From IMG/VR virus record IMGVR_UViG_3300014205_000183: a stretch of DNA of 64,000 bases; one strand, 5' to 3'. The notes beneath the pieces were generated by a model, which saw only the letters and a list, made by a program, of their open reading frames with translations, searched no databases and had not been told where the DNA came from. Of this stretch, positions 14,325 to 62,635 are shown piece by piece. Position numbers and translations under genes: made by a program. The stretch is from a virus (Duplodnaviria > Caudoviricetes). Within the stretch, counting starts at the first letter, position 1; every line of letters starts with the position of its first letter.

Positions 14325-15788
14325 TTATCTGAGATTTTCAACCTCTCTAATATAAGACAAGATACCCTCGCTGAAGCCGCTGATATGGTTCCAAGTTCCC
14401 CTAGGACCTACACCGTGCTCTGCTGAAGCCACGTTAACCATGTAAGCCAGCGGCGTTCTGGCGTTTGGAACTGATGTCCTGGACTGCTCATCGGTGAACA
14501 CTATAAGCCGGTCATAATCCTTCTTCTCTGCTGCGGATACTGCATAGGCGATGTCAGTGCCACCACCGAATACAGCGCCTGCCAAGGCATCCCGCAAAGC
14601 GAATCCTTTGCGTGGTGGCAACAGCAGTAACTCACCCCTATTGCCAAAGCTGTAAATATCTACATCATCACAAACCCATCGCAACACCATGGCCAACCCG
14701 AAGGCAGCCTCGTATCGCATAAGTTCTGACTTATCAGATAGAGGGTCTTTCATCGAACCACTAGTATCTACCAGCAACGCTGTACGACCAGCCAATTTAA
14801 CCTGGCTTAATATAGACTTCTCCATAACGGCCTCTAACTCTGGCTCAAAAGCCGGCGCATGCTTGGCTGCGGCGATGAATCTGAATGGCAATATCTTGCT
14901 AGTCTTCATAGCAAGCAACGCCTCCTTTATTAACGCCCGGTCAACACCTGCCTGCTCCATGTTACGCAAGTTGCGTAACAAGGCCATCCCACCAAGCAGC
15001 TCCTCCTTTATCAGGCGAGTGAAGGTCTTCTTCTTATCTGCACCTGCACTTAAAGCGGTCTCCCAGGTATCTGGGATAGGTAATACAGCCTCCTCATAGT
15101 TGGTGCATGGCTCACCTGGCTTACGCCGCTTTACTGGCTTCTTAGCCTTCTTGCGAGCCTGTTCAGCCTTCTTTATAGCTGCTGGAGAGGCATGGTCGTC
15201 ACACTTACACCAACAATGCTTACAGAAGTTACCACTAAGGGTCTTGAACAGTCTGTCCTGCTCCTTATCAACTGCCTTTGGTCTAGCCAAAAACAACACG
15301 TCACGCAACTTCACAGCTGCATTGTTGAAGTCCCACTTAGACAGACGCTCAAGATCAAACTTACCGAGACCGGCAGCCAATCCTCGCTTAAGCTGCTTGG
15401 ATAGCATCTTGCGGTCACCGTTTACTGACCAGTAAAGGCTTACCAACTCGCCCAGCTCATCTGGGCGCTGAATCACAGCCTCTGCGGTCTTGGCCACAAA
15501 CTCAGGATGAAACTTGCACATAGCAACGACAATCATGAGTGGGGCATGCCGCATATGCCACTTTGACCGAACCTCTATAGCCCAATCACTGGCAAACTGA
15601 CCAGACACCTTGGCCACTGCATCATATATAGCAGTCTTTATGGTCTTACCATCTACATAGAACTGATCCTCTCCCAGGAAGCAACAGGCAGTTAGCCGTT
15701 GTAGTAGCTGCTCTGGAGTATTTCTGATAGCTACCGCACCCTCGTGGGTGTGTGGAGCTGGGGTTACGATTTTACGATTTGACTTCAT
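14325..15788 (-). CDS. rsr: Ro60/Rsr TROVE-domain RNA-binding protein with C-terminal vWA
   Basis: THEGA, VIQRPDEL, KQLKRGLA, KLRDVLFL.RPK, TWETALS, MALLRNLRN, LPFRFIAA; vWA DTSGSM, GGTD, VFTDEQ. Confidence 0.93.
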   Translation of the reverse strand: MKSNRKIVTPAPHTHEGAVAIRNTPEQLLQRLTACCFLGEDQFYVDGKTIKTAIYDAVAKVSGQFASDWAIEVRSKWHMRHAPLMIVVAMCKFHPEFVAKTAEAVIQRPDELGELVSLYWSVNGDRKMLSKQLKRGLAAGLGKFDLERLSKWDFNNAAVKLRDVLFLARPKAVDKEQDRLFKTLSGNFCKHCWCKCDDHASPAAIKKAEQARKKAKKPVKRRKPGEPCTNYEEAVLPIPDTWETALSAGADKKKTFTRLIKEELLGGMALLRNLRNMEQAGVDRALIKEALLAMKTSKILPFRFIAAAKHAPAFEPELEAVMEKSILSQVKLAGRTALLVDTSGSMKDPLSDKSELMRYEAAFGLAMVLRWVCDDVDIYSFGNRGELLLLPPRKGFALRDALAGAVFGGGTDIAYAVSAAEKKDYDRLIVFTDEQSRTSVPNARTPLAYMVNVASAEHGVGPRGTWNHISGFSEGILSYIREVENLR

Positions 15789-18430: not shown

Positions 18431-18629
18431 ATCATATATCGATGGAGTCGAACCACCTAGTCTGCCTACTTACATTTACCTACCGGATTTTCATGTCCGT
18501 TCCAGTGTAGGCCGTGCACCAGTTGTTTAGACCGCACACGTACAGGATTTGAACCCGCAATAAATGTGTGCTTCAACAGCATTTGCAGCTTACGAGGCTA
18601 CTGCGTTCACCATGACGCCCCACATATGA
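18431..18629 (-). ncRNA. Giant tRNA-Thr(CGT)-like RNA with ~130-nt insert containing a second T arm
   Basis: TCATATGT/ATATATGA acceptor, GTAGC-CTCGTAA-GCTGC anticodon arm, internal GCGGGTTCAAATCCTGT and terminal GGTGGTTCGACTCCATC. Confidence 0.6.
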
Positions 18630-22280: not shown

Positions 22281-22513
22281 ATAATGTTAACAAAGGTGTG
22301 GTGGGCGCCCCGGATTCTCAGGTCCTGGCCGACCAGATTCCACTTCACCTTCAAATTTTAAAATCTCCGGTAGCCCGACTCGAACGGACTCAGGCGCCCG
22401 CTAAGGCCCCCTGCTACCCTTACATCATTCCCGAAGATATTGTACAGGAGACCATCCGCGTTGTCACGTAGAAGCCAGTTTTACCGCGTTTGCAGCCCGA
22501 ACCTGTTTACTTT

Positions 22514-22783: not shown

Positions 22784-23761
22784 CTAATTATTTTTTAAAC
22801 TTGTTCTGTACGCTTGATAATGGGATAAGGAACAGAAAAAATGAGATTGATTACATTTTTCTTTTTCTTTTATTCTCTTAACTTTTATAGCAAATAAGCT
22901 ATGACAATATGCACAGGATATTTGTGTATACGCGGCTCTTTTTATTCGACCCTGCTTTCCTTGTTCTACAAATGCCACACGGTGTGTGAGATTATTCTTA
23001 GTCCAATATCCGCGCCCTATTTTTGTATGTATCCCGTACAATTTACACCATTTTCTTATGGAATTTCCAGTTACTCCGTAAACCTGCGCTATTTTTGTGA
23101 TGGGCGAGGATTTAACTAATAATTGTAATTGCTCCATACTAGGTCTGTTCGTAATTTTTTTTACTGCATGCTGTCTGGCAGCACACGAGAGACATCGGGT
23201 GCTTACTTTTGAAATTATCGAACCACAATCAATGCAATTTTTGATCTTTCGTCTATTTTTACCGTTGGTGGTGGGTAGCTGCATATTACAATTAGGACAT
23301 ACTATTCTTAAATTTTCTATACGATAATCATCTCGATGTCCATTTATATGGTCAAGTATTAACGTTAATGGTTTTTCAAACCATTCTGGTCTTTGTCCAC
23401 ATAATGCACATATATTTTTTAAAATACCCTCTTTCAATAATCGATGTTTAAGTCCTCGATTATCTTTACACGGAGAGTGGTTTATAAGTAATTCACTAAG
23501 AGGTCTAGCAGGAACTCTGAACTTTAAATCCGCTCCTTGTTTAGCTTTAAAATGTTCAATATTTATTTTATCATAATCTAATCGTTCTTTTAACGCACGA
23601 AGTGCCGCGCCGTTCTTAACCCTACCAAAGTAAGACAGTATAGCTGAAAAGGACGAACATTTTTTAACAACCTGCTCAAAAGTATCCCGGTCTAAAGACC
23701 AGAACACTCCATTACGCTTTAGTTGTCTTTCTTTACTATAATGTTCTTGGTTCATATCCAT
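22784..23761 (-). CDS. HNH homing endonuclease with Zn fingers and HTH
   Basis: CALCG...LDHINGHRDDYRIENLRIVCPNC; AT-rich insert between tRNAs. Confidence 0.88.
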   Translation of the reverse strand: MDMNQEHYSKERQLKRNGVFWSLDRDTFEQVVKKCSSFSAILSYFGRVKNGAALRALKERLDYDKINIEHFKAKQGADLKFRVPARPLSELLINHSPCKDNRGLKHRLLKEGILKNICALCGQRPEWFEKPLTLILDHINGHRDDYRIENLRIVCPNCNMQLPTTNGKNRRKIKNCIDCGSIISKVSTRCLSCAARQHAVKKITNRPSMEQLQLLVKSSPITKIAQVYGVTGNSIRKWCKLYGIHTKIGRGYWTKNNLTHRVAFVEQGKQGRIKRAAYTQISCAYCHSLFAIKVKRIKEKEKCNQSHFFCSLSHYQAYRTSLKNN

Positions 23762-24791: not shown

Positions 24792-25544
24792 TTAATTTGT
24801 TTTTGTCTTAATCAAATTATGTAAAGTTTTTCTTCCTTTACCATGATTAAGACCACCCCACGTGGGTGTCATAGCATGACAATTAGGACATAAAACTTCA
24901 TGATTACCTGGTGTTTGATTGAAGGCATTGCCATCTTTGTGGTTTACTTGCAGTACACTTTTATTTGATGAGGGATTTGGCTTATTAAATCCACATTGTT
25001 GGCATTTGTAACCTGCTTCTTTTATTAGATAGTTTCGTAAGATACGAGGTATGGGCATCGGCCCGTTTTTTAAACCGGCTTTCCATTCAGTTATATATTT
25101 TTGTTGCCTATATTTTACTTGACAACTATGCGAACAATATTTTTGATTACCTGGTATCTCTTTTTGGCATTCTACACATTTTGAAATACTTGATTTTCTT
25201 TTAGGAAACATCCTGTTATTATACACCGCAGCACACGATCTGCTGCAAAAGATATTTTTACTTTTCTTTCTACGTGCCCTGTATTGTGTTAGTGTAAGTT
25301 CTTTTCCGCAGTTTATGCAATTAAGTTTTTCCCTAACCTTAAACCACTTATCCTGATTTAATTGAATGAGGCATTTTTTAGAACATACGGACTTTGGTCG
25401 ATATTTTAATCGAAAGTTACTTCTAACTATTGGTGCTTGGCAAACACAACATTTAACAACAGGCATACCTATAATATATCTTAAAGGAGTCGAAAAAGCT
25501 AATACAATACACCATATTAAGATATTACTATGTTCGAATCCCAA
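24792..25544 (-). CDS. HNH homing endonuclease with Cys-rich repeats
   Basis: CQQCG...LQVNHKDGN...NHEVLCPNCH. True start may be MPVVKC at ~25466. Confidence 0.85.
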   Translation of the reverse strand: MGFEHSNILIWCIVLAFSTPLRYIIGMPVVKCCVCQAPIVRSNFRLKYRPKSVCSKKCLIQLNQDKWFKVREKLNCINCGKELTLTQYRARRKKSKNIFCSRSCAAVYNNRMFPKRKSSISKCVECQKEIPGNQKYCSHSCQVKYRQQKYITEWKAGLKNGPMPIPRILRNYLIKEAGYKCQQCGFNKPNPSSNKSVLQVNHKDGNAFNQTPGNHEVLCPNCHAMTPTWGGLNHGKGRKTLHNLIKTKTN

Positions 25545-26288: not shown

Positions 26289-26537
26289 ATATTTGAATAA
26301 TCGTACCTGAAATGTCAAAGATCTTATCACCCGGACGTTCCCCGTGTGCCAGTAGCTCCAGCGCGGCTTACGCGGCTTACGGAGTTCCCAGTATATCAAT
26401 TAGCTATCGACAAAAAAAGAACGCGCAGGCTAGTGTGTTGGCACCAACATGCGCGTTCTAATTTATACCTGATGGTTTGGATGGCCGTCCGTGCCACCAG
26501 GCTGTCGAAAATTTTCTAACTCTATCCTACTAAACCC

Positions 26538-26573
26538 AAAACAAAAAACCCTCGGTTTTGGCCGAGGGTTCTT
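26538..26573 (-). terminator. Intrinsic terminator (attenuator) upstream of the tRNA array
   Basis: AAGAACCCTCGG-CCAAAA-CCGAGGGTTTTTTGTTTT. Confidence 0.88.
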
Positions 26574-26601
26574 CTTTTATCTGTGCAAGAAAAAACCCTC
26601 G
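26563..26601 (-). promoter_or_regulatory. Antiterminator hairpin, mutually exclusive with the terminator
   Basis: CGAGGGTTTTTT directly after the leader stop pairs over 12 bp with GAAGAACCCTCG, the terminator's 5' arm. Confidence 0.8.
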
Positions 26602-26739
26602 TTAGGTTCGGTGTCCTTCCATATCATTATTGCCTAGTGTGGCAACAGTCATATAGACTGACAAACAAATGGGCTGCGCCCATACGCCTGTGCGTCTTTG
26701 ACTTTTGGATATAAATGGGGTTTTTAATAACGAAGACAT
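26602..26739 (-). CDS. 45-aa leader peptide containing all 20 amino acids
   Basis: AAGAGG RBS 5 nt before ATG; MSSLLKTPFISKSQRRTGVWAQPICLSVYMTVATLGNNDMEGHRT*. Below the ORF-track cutoff. Confidence 0.78.
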   Translation of the reverse strand: MSSLLKTPFISKSQRRTGVWAQPICLSVYMTVATLGNNDMEGHRT

Positions 26740-26786
26740 TTTTCCTCTTTTAACTTTTTAATGTTTCTAAATCTACAAGCTCCCTT

Positions 26787-26815
26787 AATATAGCACATGA
26801 AATATGGAATGTCAA
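26787..26815 (-). promoter_or_regulatory. Promoter of the leader/tRNA operon
   Basis: TTGACA-17-TATATT with extended -10 TGn. Confidence 0.8.
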
Positions 26816-26876
26816 TAGTTTTTTTTATTAAATCGTAAAATAAATTTATTACTTATTTTATTTTGTTATTTTTATG

Positions 26877-26906
26877 TTGACTTTTAATATTTGCATAGAG
26901 TATACT
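26877..26906 (+). promoter_or_regulatory. Divergent sigma70-type promoter
   Basis: TTGACT-18-TATACT. Confidence 0.6.
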
Positions 26907-26938: not shown

Positions 26939-27382
26939 ATGGCAGATATAATGATACCGTATAGAAATCAAATCATAAGACACGATCGCAGTTTGGATAA
27001 ATTTTATATCCTTAAGTCAAACATCATATCGCGCACAGGAGGATTTGACAGCCTAACAGAGGCACTTGATTACATTAAGGAAATAAAACGCAAGCCACTT
27101 AACATCCCAGTTGCCATTGTTGAGTATCATGGGAGCAAGGTAGTTAGAGGCCTCGTACAAGAGCATAGAAATGGATGGGTAACTGTGCGGGTGAATCCCG
27201 AGAGAGAAATCACTACAATACTGGAAAACGTATATCTGGATAATGAAACTAACCGTGAACAACTAAATTTACTGGATTGGGCATATACGATTATTAACGC
27301 TAACGCTCAAGAAATACCCAGCATGCGTAAGAAATTGGTACCTTTCACGCCAACAACTAAAAAAAGTAAAAAAGCATTATAA
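26939..27382 (+). CDS. Hypothetical protein, paralog of the next gene
   Basis: AGGAGG RBS before ATG at 26939; GGF..L..ALDYI...PV...NVYLD shared with 27394-27837. Confidence 0.65.
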   Translation: MADIMIPYRNQIIRHDRSLDKFYILKSNIISRTGGFDSLTEALDYIKEIKRKPLNIPVAIVEYHGSKVVRGLVQEHRNGWVTVRVNPEREITTILENVYLDNETNREQLNLLDWAYTIINANAQEIPSMRKKLVPFTPTTKKSKKAL

Positions 27383-27393
27383 GGAGGTTCATA

Positions 27394-27837
27394 ATGTCAG
27401 AAATAGAAATCCCTCACAAAAAACACACGATCAAATATAACCGGCATATTGAGTCATTTCAGGTGTACTCTGATAAAACTGGTAAGAGGATAGGTGGCTT
27501 CAAGAAGCTACACACAGCTATAGACTATATTGACTCCCTCAGCCACAAGACAACGAACACCCCGGTTGTAGTCATATTTAACGATCGTTATAAAGCTATG
27601 AGAGGCGTCGCAAAAAAATACAGTAGAGGGGTTGTGACTGTCGCTTTAGAAGGCGCACAAAAAGTCAATGTTAATGCGTCTTGTGTATATTTAGACGATG
27701 ACAGTAATCACGATGAATTACAGTTCCTAGACAAGGTGTATGATGTCATCCACGTTAATCTGGCTACTGTGGATAAAATCAAAGCATATCTGACTCCTTT
27801 TAAGGCCACACACCGTGCCGTGGCCAGAGGTAAGTAA
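27394..27837 (+). CDS. Hypothetical protein, paralog of the previous gene
   Basis: AGGAGG RBS, shared motifs. Confidence 0.65.
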   Translation: MSEIEIPHKKHTIKYNRHIESFQVYSDKTGKRIGGFKKLHTAIDYIDSLSHKTTNTPVVVIFNDRYKAMRGVAKKYSRGVVTVALEGAQKVNVNASCVYLDDDSNHDELQFLDKVYDVIHVNLATVDKIKAYLTPFKATHRAVARGK

Positions 27838-54888: not shown

Positions 54889-54964
54889 TTATTATTACTT
54901 CGATAATAACAATATAGCACTTAAAATAACAAAAGTCAAATACTTTTTATCAAAATGATAATAA
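54889..54964 (-). promoter_or_regulatory. NAD operon promoter flanked by two 21-bp palindromes (candidate NrtR operators)
   Basis: TTGACT(54934-39)-17-TATATT; TTATTAT-N7-ATAATAA (54889-54909) and TTTTTAT-N7-ATAATAA (54944-54964). Confidence 0.6.
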
Positions 54965-60304: not shown

Positions 60305-62635
60305 TTAGCTTTCCAGGGTCAAATCGATTGCCTCGGCATAACCGCCAACAACGTTTGACACAACTTTTGCCCGTTCTTCCTGCTCCCGCTTATCTTTAGG
60401 TGACATCTCCATCTTCTCTGCTTTAGGAGCTTCTTTTGGTTTGGTTGGATAAGCATGCTTTTCATTCTTACCTTCTGATATGTCTTTAACCCCATCATAA
60501 GTATCATCCTGTACCAACTTATGAGCAGCCTTTAAGCAGCCCTTGCAAACAGCCAGGACAGGGTTTTTAGCCTGCCAAACCTTTCCCACCGGAATAGGTA
60601 GGGGATTCTCTTTGAGAGCCTCGGCAAGCAGTCTCAGAAACCCTTTAGGCATCGTGGTACCACCGGCCACTACAAAATTAAGAGGCTCCTTGACTTTGAT
60701 ATCCCGCCGATGCTTTTCCATGGCCGCTGATAAATGTCCAATGACATATTCAAGCATCGCCTTATAAAAAATTGTGATTGCCTCTTGAATATCATTCTTA
60801 GGAGCCAACAAATCCAAATCCTCGGCCTCCTTCTCCGCCGTCGCATCAGAAACAGCAATACCCCGACTCTGCGCCACTTGTTGGTCAATCCAATCCCCAC
60901 AATTGTGAACAGTCATGTATGGTAGGGTGAACGAGTGATTTTCACTTCTAATACGTAGGTCGTAAACCTCGACGGCTCGGCCTTGTATAGGAACAACTTC
61001 TTTTATAACTGAGGAAAGCATAGGCACTGGCAGTCCATAAACACTGTGGCCATCATAGTCAGAAAACATGCAAAGTAATTTTACCACGTCATGTTTGGTT
61101 CCAATTTTATACTCATATACAATCTTAGTTCCCACAATAGGAACCCCTCTTTTATTTTTATGACCGCTAGTCCGAGGTTTCCGAATCTGAAGTGCCCCTT
61201 GAATCCCAACTCGGCCAAGAAGTTGACGAAACACCCATACAAGCTGACTTGAAGTATTGCAGAAGGATATTGTGCTCTTATCTGGGCTAATGTAGCCATC
61301 TGAATCTAATAGCCCTTCTAAAATTCCCAAAGCCATGTTATCCGGTATGGTATTAAGAGAAATTGGGAGTGTTTTCACCCCATCATCATCATAAAATTCC
61401 AACATCTTCTTAGCTATTATTTTATCAGTTATCTTCAGATTTACTACGGAAGATTCCTTACCATGGGACGCCAGCCTAATACTGGTTCCTGCCGGAAATA
61501 TAGATTCCACTATTTTGGTGTACTTACGAAAGCCCTCAACATCCTTTTTGTTAAATGCGATACTTACATGATACTGACTTGTCTCTGTGTTAAATATTGC
61601 ATGTCCATCACCAAGAAAAGCACCTATAAACCTGCCGACATTTCGACATGCCTGCGGCTTTATGCATCGATATGTGCCATCCCCATTTGGTGTATTACCG
61701 AAATAGACTTGCTTAATAGGTTCTGTACAATGTATAACAGGCTCACCTACAGTCATGCCTGCTTTAAGGTCTTTGGTAGCAACATACGACCAATTTATCC
61801 CACTCTGAACAAGTATGGGATGGTCAGATGTCGCAACTCTCTGCATACCCAATCCTGAAACAGTTATACCAAACAAATCGGACCGAACGCCGTTATTTAC
61901 TGTCTCATCTACCTCACAAAGTATACCGTGAGAATCAGACACCCTATGGTAACCTGGAATTATATTTTTTATAGGAACAAATCCCTTATCTGTGCACACT
62001 AACGTTGAAGCCTCCAAGCATCGGGCAACACTGAAACTGAACACCTCTAATCCACGATAAGCCAGACAACAGTTTGCCATTCCCGCGCCCCAAGAAATGG
62101 ATACTCCTGTCAACTCCTTATCCTCAAGTTCACACCAAGCAACAGCCAAAGCCTCATTGATAGGCTCAGCCTTGTAGCCTAAATCACTTAAAAAGCGCCT
62201 AAACATCTCACGGTGGTATATGTTATTGAAATCCGCATCCACTGGATTAGCGGGTATAGAGAAGTAAGCTACATCCCCCGGATCACCCTGCCCTGAAACT
62301 CGACGGATAATCTCCTTCAGGATAAATTCAGTATCTTTCTCTCGGGCACTGATGACACCAGACGCCAGAGGACGACGCAGCTCCTGACCAAATAACACTG
62401 CCATATCAAATGCCTCGTTACCTATAACAAAAATGTCTCGCTTACCCTCCACATTGGGGCGGTCTTTTACAATGAACGGCACCTTCGATTCTGTAAGCAT
62501 ATGCTTTCGCTGGTCCAGATAAGGCATCACAAAAAATCCATCACGAACCATCTTGGCAGCTACATTATCTTTATTGTACCTGGCACTAGCTATAAAGGCT
62601 GTTCCAATATCTACTCCTATTGCTTTCATGCTCAT
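60305..62635 (-). CDS. Actin-like ATPase (MreB/MamK-like) containing an intein
   Basis: IGVDIGT, RRPL.SGVI, INEALAV, ISWGAG, VAGGTT, AVCKG. Confidence 0.85.
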   Translation of the reverse strand: MSMKAIGVDIGTAFIASARYNKDNVAAKMVRDGFFVMPYLDQRKHMLTESKVPFIVKDRPNVEGKRDIFVIGNEAFDMAVLFGQELRRPLASGVISAREKDTEFILKEIIRRVSGQGDPGDVAYFSIPANPVDADFNNIYHREMFRRFLSDLGYKAEPINEALAVAWCELEDKELTGVSISWGAGMANCCLAYRGLEVFSFSVARCLEASTLVCTDKGFVPIKNIIPGYHRVSDSHGILCEVDETVNNGVRSDLFGITVSGLGMQRVATSDHPILVQSGINWSYVATKDLKAGMTVGEPVIHCTEPIKQVYFGNTPNGDGTYRCIKPQACRNVGRFIGAFLGDGHAIFNTETSQYHVSIAFNKKDVEGFRKYTKIVESIFPAGTSIRLASHGKESSVVNLKITDKIIAKKMLEFYDDDGVKTLPISLNTIPDNMALGILEGLLDSDGYISPDKSTISFCNTSSQLVWVFRQLLGRVGIQGALQIRKPRTSGHKNKRGVPIVGTKIVYEYKIGTKHDVVKLLCMFSDYDGHSVYGLPVPMLSSVIKEVVPIQGRAVEVYDLRIRSENHSFTLPYMTVHNCGDWIDQQVAQSRGIAVSDATAEKEAEDLDLLAPKNDIQEAITIFYKAMLEYVIGHLSAAMEKHRRDIKVKEPLNFVVAGGTTMPKGFLRLLAEALKENPLPIPVGKVWQAKNPVLAVCKGCLKAAHKLVQDDTYDGVKDISEGKNEKHAYPTKPKEAPKAEKMEMSPKDKREQEERAKVVSNVVGGYAEAIDLTLES
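60902..62020 (-). mobile_element. Intein with LAGLIDADG homing endonuclease (373 aa)
   Basis: R|CLEASTLV start, TSDHP block B, IGAFLGDG and LEGLLDSDG, VYDL...TVHN|C end. Confidence 0.92.

Follow-up and report, generated by a model that had tools for sequence, protein, structure and literature searches.

A candidate translation-sensing terminator switch upstream of the tRNA array of an uncultured phage

Leader attenuators and candidate tRNA leaders of cultured phages

In the leader-peptide attenuators of enterobacteria, a ribosome that has arrived at the leader's end masks an upstream RNA strand, and the terminator then forms. To our knowledge, the regulation of phage tRNA genes is essentially unstudied, and no description of leader-attenuator control for tRNA genes was found in the literature. 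The nearest published system in logic to the locus described here is the uORF of mycobacterial whiB7, a uORF-terminator switch that responds to many translation troubles. Knock-down of amino-acid synthesis genes, tRNAs or tRNA synthetases activates this system, and the uORF's coding sequence determines which shortages are sensed (bioRxiv 10.1101/2023.06.02.543512). The whiB7 uORF is bacterial, enriched in alanine and controls a transcription factor, whereas the leader described below is unenriched, belongs to a phage and precedes tRNA genes. In antibiotic-responsive attenuators such as mef(E)/mel, the ribosome stalled on the leader ORF relieves an intrinsic terminator, and the stalling is reported to be specific to the drug and to take place at particular peptide motifs (PMC4335068).

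Among cultured phages of Caulobacter and Brevundimonas, a leader of a similar kind is found in front of tRNA genes. In phiCbK (JX100813), an annotated terminator is located ahead of the Phe-Val-Ile-Ile-Val-Gln-Gln tRNA array, and upstream of this terminator are a TTGACA promoter and a 32-codon ORF (L004:4543-4641), in which Phe, Val, Ile or Gln accounts for 9 of the 15 residues at codons 4-18. A near-copy of the terminator 3' arm is located inside the ORF, and the predicted antiterminator and terminator states are closely balanced (-52.2 versus -52.4, with a barrier of 8.6 kcal/mol). By blastn, the phiCbK leader element was matched in 46 phage records, with identities as low as 67%; Rogue, CcrSC, Colossus and Brevundimonas phage Gurke retain the ORF together with its arm copy and the terminator. 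In this group the TTGACA promoter is followed by an ORF of 31-32 codons rich in the amino acids of the downstream array. The leaders of Colossus and Gurke, of which the arrays include tRNA-Asn, contain three and two Asn codons, respectively, against one each in phiCbK and Rogue; the CcrSC leader has a single Asn codon although its array carries tRNA-Asn. The arm copy covaries with the terminator arms, CcrSC carrying the same substituted 11-mer in both and Colossus its own matching pair. A second terminator was not seen in the Caulobacter phages, and the genome paper of phiCbK mentions neither attenuation nor leaders. As judged from these sequence comparisons, the phage tRNA-leader design class looks real, and the prior for the locus under study is raised thereby.

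Two further arrangements were observed in these phages. Rogue, Colossus and Gurke contain a conserved AGGAG and a 5-codon mini-ORF after the leader terminator, immediately ahead of the first tRNA (L005 about 1085-1115, L007 about 1070-1100 and L008 about 1060-1090, respectively), which may be a second regulatory stage. In phiCbK, the annotated 45-codon gene gp083 (L004:2741-2878), of which 23 of the 45 residues are Pro, Lys, Leu or Ser, is followed by an annotated terminator and then by a Pro-Pro-Lys-Lys-Leu-Leu-Leu-Ser-Ser array, and is probably another leader of like kind.

The locus under study is located within a window of 64,000 nucleotides, the whole stretch of DNA analyzed, which is part of the 236,752-bp metagenomic sequence of an uncultured phage. 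The window DNA is identical in one landfill run, the probable source, and one groundwater run, so that there is no sequence variation between the two; no RNA run was listed as carrying this DNA. As in the phiCbK group, a TTGACA-type promoter, a mini-ORF, a copy of the terminator 3' arm, isoenergetic states and downstream tRNA genes are all aligned on one strand. Sequence similarity between this locus and the phiCbK group is absent, and the likeness is one of design, with descent not implied. In the phiCbK group the array is partial and the leader favors its few amino acids; the arm copy is part of the ORF, and a good 1:2 hairpin is present. In contrast, the leader of this locus samples all 20 amino acids, the copy is located just past the stop codon, and a second terminator, T2, intervenes before the tRNA genes.

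The trpL, hisL, pheL, leuL, thrL and multivalent ilv leaders share with this locus the promoter-proximal short ORF and a terminator 5' arm with an alternative upstream partner, and also, by prediction, a mutually exclusive antiterminator that can be masked by a ribosome at the leader end. The leaders of the trp, his, phe and ilv type contain codon runs for a single amino acid or a small number of them, precede genes for biosynthetic enzymes and form a stable 1:2 (anti-antiterminator or pause) hairpin. In contrast, the leader of this locus has no codon runs, precedes tRNA genes, is missing the stable 1:2 hairpin and is followed by the fixed terminator T2 before the genes. The Rfam leader models stayed below their cut-offs, with 25.7 bits for Phe_leader (cut-off 55), 17.9 for His_leader (49) and 15.6 for Leu_leader (50), and these alignments cover essentially the terminator part only.

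Phage relatives were sought in phage records, IMG/VR, JGI metagenomes and two protein collections, and none was found. Searches by blastn and megablast against phage records gave no related DNA, while neither the exact T1 pattern nor the neighboring 163-aa and 545-aa proteins and the alignment of the neighboring paralogues retrieved any relative from IMG/VR. The two protein collections comprise 5.8 billion clusters and 1.84 billion representatives. Word-indexed protein searches returned the query itself only, and a HMMER profile of the paralogues, run against the 1.84 billion representative proteins, returned both paralogues and one unrelated repeat protein. The antiterminator/terminator pattern matched 8 unrelated hairpins in JGI metagenomes, and tblastn with the 572-aa protein gave just matches of about 25% identity. 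The absence of relatives from these collections, and with it of any conserved or covarying counterpart of this leader, counts against the attenuator reading proposed below.

Promoter, leader ORF and terminator T1

The features of the leader are as follows, in the order of transcription.

26815-26787, minus strand: sigma-70-type promoter (TTGACA, 17 nt, TATATT) with an extended -10 (TG), in the intergenic region 26740-26890
26749-26744, minus strand: Shine-Dalgarno-like AAGAGG, 4 nt before the leader ATG and about 40 nt after the predicted start
26739-26602, minus strand: leader ORF of 45 sense codons and TAA, with 37 distinct codons, 20 of the 20 amino acids and five Ser codons
26601-26590, minus strand: antiterminator strand (region 2), a 12-mer that is an exact copy of the T1 3' arm and U-tract and begins at the first base after the TAA
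26574-26543, minus strand: intrinsic terminator T1, with a 13-bp stem, a 6-nt loop and a U-rich tail (-19.2 kcal/mol)

The promoter matches the consensus at 11 of 12 positions, in addition to the extended -10, and showed the highest sigma-70 PWM score of the whole 64-kb window (16.4), the next-best score inside 26290-26830 being 9.8. Transcription is predicted to start at about 26780 on the minus strand. A second promoter of like type was detected at 54919 (TTGACT, then TGCTATATT). An earlier sequence-only reading of this DNA had described the same promoter (TTGACA-17-TATATT, extended -10), the AAGAGG as ribosome-binding site, the 45-codon ORF with 37 distinct codons, 20 amino acids and five Ser codons, and an antiterminator strand that follows the TAA with zero spacing; all of these were found again at the positions given above, and our recount of the codons agrees.

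In the leader ORF each of the 20 amino acids is present one to five times, with no runs longer than pairs, and a cluster of codons for a regulating amino acid (or amino acids) is absent. The combination of at least 37 distinct codons and 20 amino acids per 45 codons was obtained in 0.11% of composition-matched iid draws; the frequency was 0.03% among stop-free windows taken from this DNA, and of 2021 windows drawn from long ORFs (gene windows) none qualified; among 118 short ORFs of similar length, the only case was the leader ORF itself. The comparison with random 45-codon windows, proposed together with the earlier reading, marks the leader as unusual at about 1 in 1,000, a statistic (~1e-3) that refers to a single sequence (n=1) spotted post hoc. 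The ORF samples 30 of the 37 phage tRNA species, while random windows sample 24.4 +/- 2.5 (p ~0.015-0.02; jointly with codon diversity ~1e-3), a test of low power because the array is complete and any ORF will match it in part. With respect to amino acids, the sets of the leader and of the array are 20 versus 20.

Relative to gene windows, the codon score of the leader ORF falls at the 6th percentile, like that of spurious ORFs, and the ORF was left uncalled by a public gene caller. Its synonymous usage (mean RSCU) is average, for which reason a sensor of rare codons was rejected. The codons ATA, AGA, CGA and CTA, which the sequence-only reading had singled out, are ordinary in this phage (RSCU 0.84-1.29). 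The leader peptide gave no matches to protein families, and its sole hydrophobic stretch has a Kyte-Doolittle mean of about 1.2, under the usual level of membrane helices. A toxin-antitoxin unit was also rejected, because no plus-strand promoter for an antisense RNA was found and the peptide is not clearly membrane-spanning. At the RNA level, the leader ORF is more structured than shuffled sequences (z -3.7) and is tiled with hairpins.

The 5' arm of T1 (26574-26562) is common to the terminator and the antiterminator. The 12-mer at 26601-26590 pairs with this arm over 11-12 bp and 3 more, T1 being located 27 nt beyond, and by an arithmetic estimate chance would give an exact 12-mer repeat at such close range (within 60 nt) ~4e-6 times. 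The isolated energies are -19.2 kcal/mol for T1, -17.3 for the antiterminator and -4.7 to -8.0 for the anti-antiterminator (1:2). Once the 3' arm has been made, the antiterminator (-17.3 kcal/mol) and the terminator (-16.7 kcal/mol) are isoenergetic, with a barrier to branch migration of 6.4 kcal/mol.

The effect of ribosome position was modeled in two ways. In the co-transcriptional view, the transcript was cut just before the T1 3' arm is made and the ribosome footprint was placed at each A-site codon. Before synthesis of the T1 3' arm, the antiterminator forms with P ~1 in the absence of a ribosome and at every A-site position from codon 2 to codon 43, and it is blocked only when the A site is at codons 44, 45 or the stop (46). 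In equilibrium folding with the whole leader free, the terminator is favored at every stall position (P 0.79-0.999); stall positions are not discriminated by equilibrium folding with ribosome masks, and the co-transcriptional view alone does so. Folding with the nucleotides after the stop blocked, also proposed earlier, gave the predicted masking in the co-transcriptional view, by codons 44-46 only, and not at equilibrium, where the terminator always wins. Because the terminator wins at equilibrium at all stall positions, any regulation must be kinetic, and a modest dynamic range is predicted from the low refolding barrier. The weak 1:2 pairing implies that there is no clear pause or synchronizing hairpin of the trp kind, and that an untranslated leader should read through rather than be super-attenuated. 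These models support the T1 region having the geometry of a ribosome-dependent terminator/antiterminator switch, and the structure fits a kinetic attenuator that depends on ribosome position, probably of modest dynamic range.

The second terminator and the tRNA array

Between T1 and the end of the tRNA array, the following features were identified.

26508-26407, minus strand: structured RNA, with a 6-bp closing stem, a 9-bp hairpin with an 18-nt loop, and then T2 (-50 kcal/mol, z -7.1)
26459-26412, minus strand: terminator T2, with a 10-bp GC-rich lower stem, a 7-bp upper stem and 7 U
26398-26390, minus strand: weak candidate promoter of the array, an extended -10 (TGATATACT) with no -35
26323-26313, minus strand: boxA-like motif, 23 nt before the first tRNA
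26289-19721, minus strand: tRNA array of 38 tRNA genes for all 20 amino acids
20426-20986, 22784-23761 and 24792-25544, minus strand: three HNH homing-endonuclease genes inserted within the tRNA array

A total of 36 tRNA genes were called by ARAGORN, and His-GTG and Glu-TTC were added by Rfam and a relaxed ARAGORN run. The first gene of the array is tRNA-Val(TAC) (26289-26216, minus strand), and one more tRNA-like gene is located outside the array at 18534. The earlier count of 39 tRNAs is thereby corrected to 38, while the coverage of all 20 amino acids that it reported is borne out by the tRNA calls.

The distance from T1 to the first tRNA is 254 nt, with T2 in between. In a scan of both strands, T2 was the strongest terminator-like hairpin of the window and T1 was among the top five. 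No competing fold was found for T2, neither an upstream copy of an arm nor an alternative structure, and in these models T2 looks unconditional. The sequence-only reading had placed the array directly after T1 and taken the leader as its attenuator. The geometry of the switch, with its folding and isoenergetic states, stands; the proposed control of the array is not supported in that form, T2 being in between.

The tandem arrangement of T1 and T2, both among the five strongest hairpins of the window and the second unconditional, is also what would be expected of an autonomous early unit. The product would be a short RNA, either the mRNA of a 45-residue protein or a dual-function small RNA, insulated from the array by the two terminators. 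The array would then be driven from elsewhere (the extended -10 at 26398-26390, internal promoters or a promoter type specific to the phage), the 12-mer would select between 3' ends at T1 and T2 or represent a relic of terminator duplication, and the amino-acid diversity would be due to chance. We regard such a unit as somewhat unlikely, though a serious candidate. In its favor, the first copy of the repeat resembles T1 minus the inner part, and roughly one short ORF per 1,000 should reach the observed diversity, very many windows having been read. On the other hand, the repeat is exact, sharply bounded and abuts the stop codon, the pairing extends past the 12 nt, and the switch is isoenergetic like the conserved leaders of Caulobacter phages; the peptide also gave no family matches, and its hydrophobic stretch is below membrane-helix level.

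The position of the array promoter bears on the same question. Both the boxA-like site and the extended -10 are located downstream of T2, the neighboring non-coding operon has a promoter directly before its own boxA-like site, and promoter-like sites are present inside the array (for example at 22467), which speaks for an independently driven array. However, the downstream candidate is at chance level, with a PWM score of 7.5 that is reached ~2.9 times per kb by chance, and no other strong sigma-70 promoter was found between the leader and the first tRNA. The 9-mer TGATATACT is present five times in the window, on both strands (368, 6507, 26398, 39541 and 48261), against ~0.9 expected; two of the copies are antisense inside genes, and the 9-mer is therefore not simply a promoter -10. 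In a 10-mer search for a promoter motif that the T2-tRNA gap shares with other parts of the window, just this 9/10-mer was detected.

The RNA of about 130 nt between T1 and the array is structured, and the part at 26508-26407 could be a small RNA that depends on read-through. In the T1-T2 interval no mini-ORF with a Shine-Dalgarno site was found, Rfam assigned the T1-T2 RNA to no known small-RNA family, and its antisense matches were 10-mers at chance level only. A T-box riboswitch was rejected for this RNA, with zero T-box hits at E up to 10 and no competitor for the T2 5' arm. The T1-T2 part ends with an AU-rich stretch, a hairpin and U7, as in Hfq-type small RNAs. This end would suit a structured small RNA carrying an untranslated ORF, with T1 left largely open owing to the upstream 12-mer and the mature RNA ending at T2 (~370 nt). 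The formation of the antiterminator first in the absence of a ribosome (P ~1), the codon score resembling that of non-coding sequence and the omission of the ORF by the gene caller are in agreement with this model. We consider it improbable, since a Shine-Dalgarno-like site at working distance together with an ATG was found in just 14 of 381 short ORFs of the window (3.7%), a stop codon exactly at the edge of the switch would be unneeded, and Rfam families gave zero matches.

The boxA-like motif (G-N-TCTTT-N-A) has six matches in the window, five of which fall, on the minus strand, within the 16.4-26.4 kb region of non-coding RNA (26323, 20407, 18641, 18426 and 16478). These motifs are located where untranslated stretches begin, namely behind a promoter, behind an HNH gene and ahead of the first tRNA. 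Their recurrence across non-coding operons, the strongest promoter with two strong terminators behind it and a 7-kb non-coding operon beyond them, and the leader RNA tiled with hairpins (z -3.7) recall the gate of the lambda PR'-tR' kind. In such a gate, a strong constitutive promoter would give a short terminated RNA, and at a set time of infection a phage factor or a put-like cis RNA in the structured leader would render RNA polymerase resistant to terminators; the enzyme would then pass T1 and T2 and enter the array, and translation of the ORF would be irrelevant. Little likelihood is given to this gate, because no Q-, N- or put-like element was recognized by Rfam, the boxA-like site is located after the terminators and not before them, and both the exact arm copy next to the stop codon and the Shine-Dalgarno site are left unexplained.

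Outside the leader and the array, the window contains a phage tmRNA (35213-35566, plus strand; 118.7 bits; tag peptide ANEEFRAAA), which together with Ro60 (14325-15788) and the tRNA set forms a large toolkit of RNA quality control. Tandem paralogues with 29% identity (26939-27382 and 27394-27837, plus strand) are transcribed divergently from the leader. A 776-aa protein (60305-62635, minus strand) has an actin-like Volactin domain interrupted by a LAGLIDADG homing-endonuclease domain, which is unusual for a phage; the insertion is probably an intein.

Proposed mode of action and its biological meaning

Based on the evidence above, our tentative reading, to which we assign a probability of about 0.45, is a translation-sensing attenuator at T1, of the phage tRNA-leader class, arranged in series with the fixed terminator T2. 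RNA polymerase would initiate at the region's strongest promoter, with a ribosome translating the 45-codon leader. When the ribosome keeps pace and has reached the last two codons or the stop, it would cover the 12 nt, and T1 would form and end transcription. When the ribosome is delayed at codons 2-43 or is not loaded, the 12 nt would pair first with the 5' arm of T1, and with the antiterminator paired, part of the polymerases would pass T1. The read-through transcript would contain first the structured RNA of 130 nt and then the fixed strong T2, and only transcripts passing T2 would reach the boxA-like site and the array of 38 tRNA genes. Both translation of the leader and the kinetic competition are presumed to take place in vivo, and the tRNA array is presumably the target of the switch. 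Since T2 is in series, the switch would alter transcription of the array by a fold factor and would not be its sole gate.

Because the leader holds all 20 amino acids and 30 of the 37 tRNA species, nearly any shortage in decoding would be registered. A stronger proposal is that the leader has been selected as a gauge of the whole tRNA pool, in which the loss of almost any tRNA, or a block of translation, opens T1 as an inducible counter-defense. We consider this proposal doubtful, and the link to anti-phage tRNA nucleases and a role in counter-defense is purely speculative. Phage tRNAs are described as rescuing infection from tRNA-cutting defenses in three reports (eLife PMC10264068; Nat Commun PMC11555353; Nature PMC11464382). 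If the proposal is true, the gauge of the tRNA pool would sense the damage itself, for instance that caused by a host anticodon nuclease, rather than a defense protein, and the opening of T1 would raise transcription of the complete tRNA set of the phage's own.

A leader that reads the progress of the ribosome over all codons would represent a simple feedback, in which a falter in decoding leads to the making of tRNAs. The presence of the same design in cultured Caulobacter phages, with covariation, makes the idea testable at the bench. If true, a regulatory principle known for 50 years would be extended from amino-acid genes to tRNA genes.
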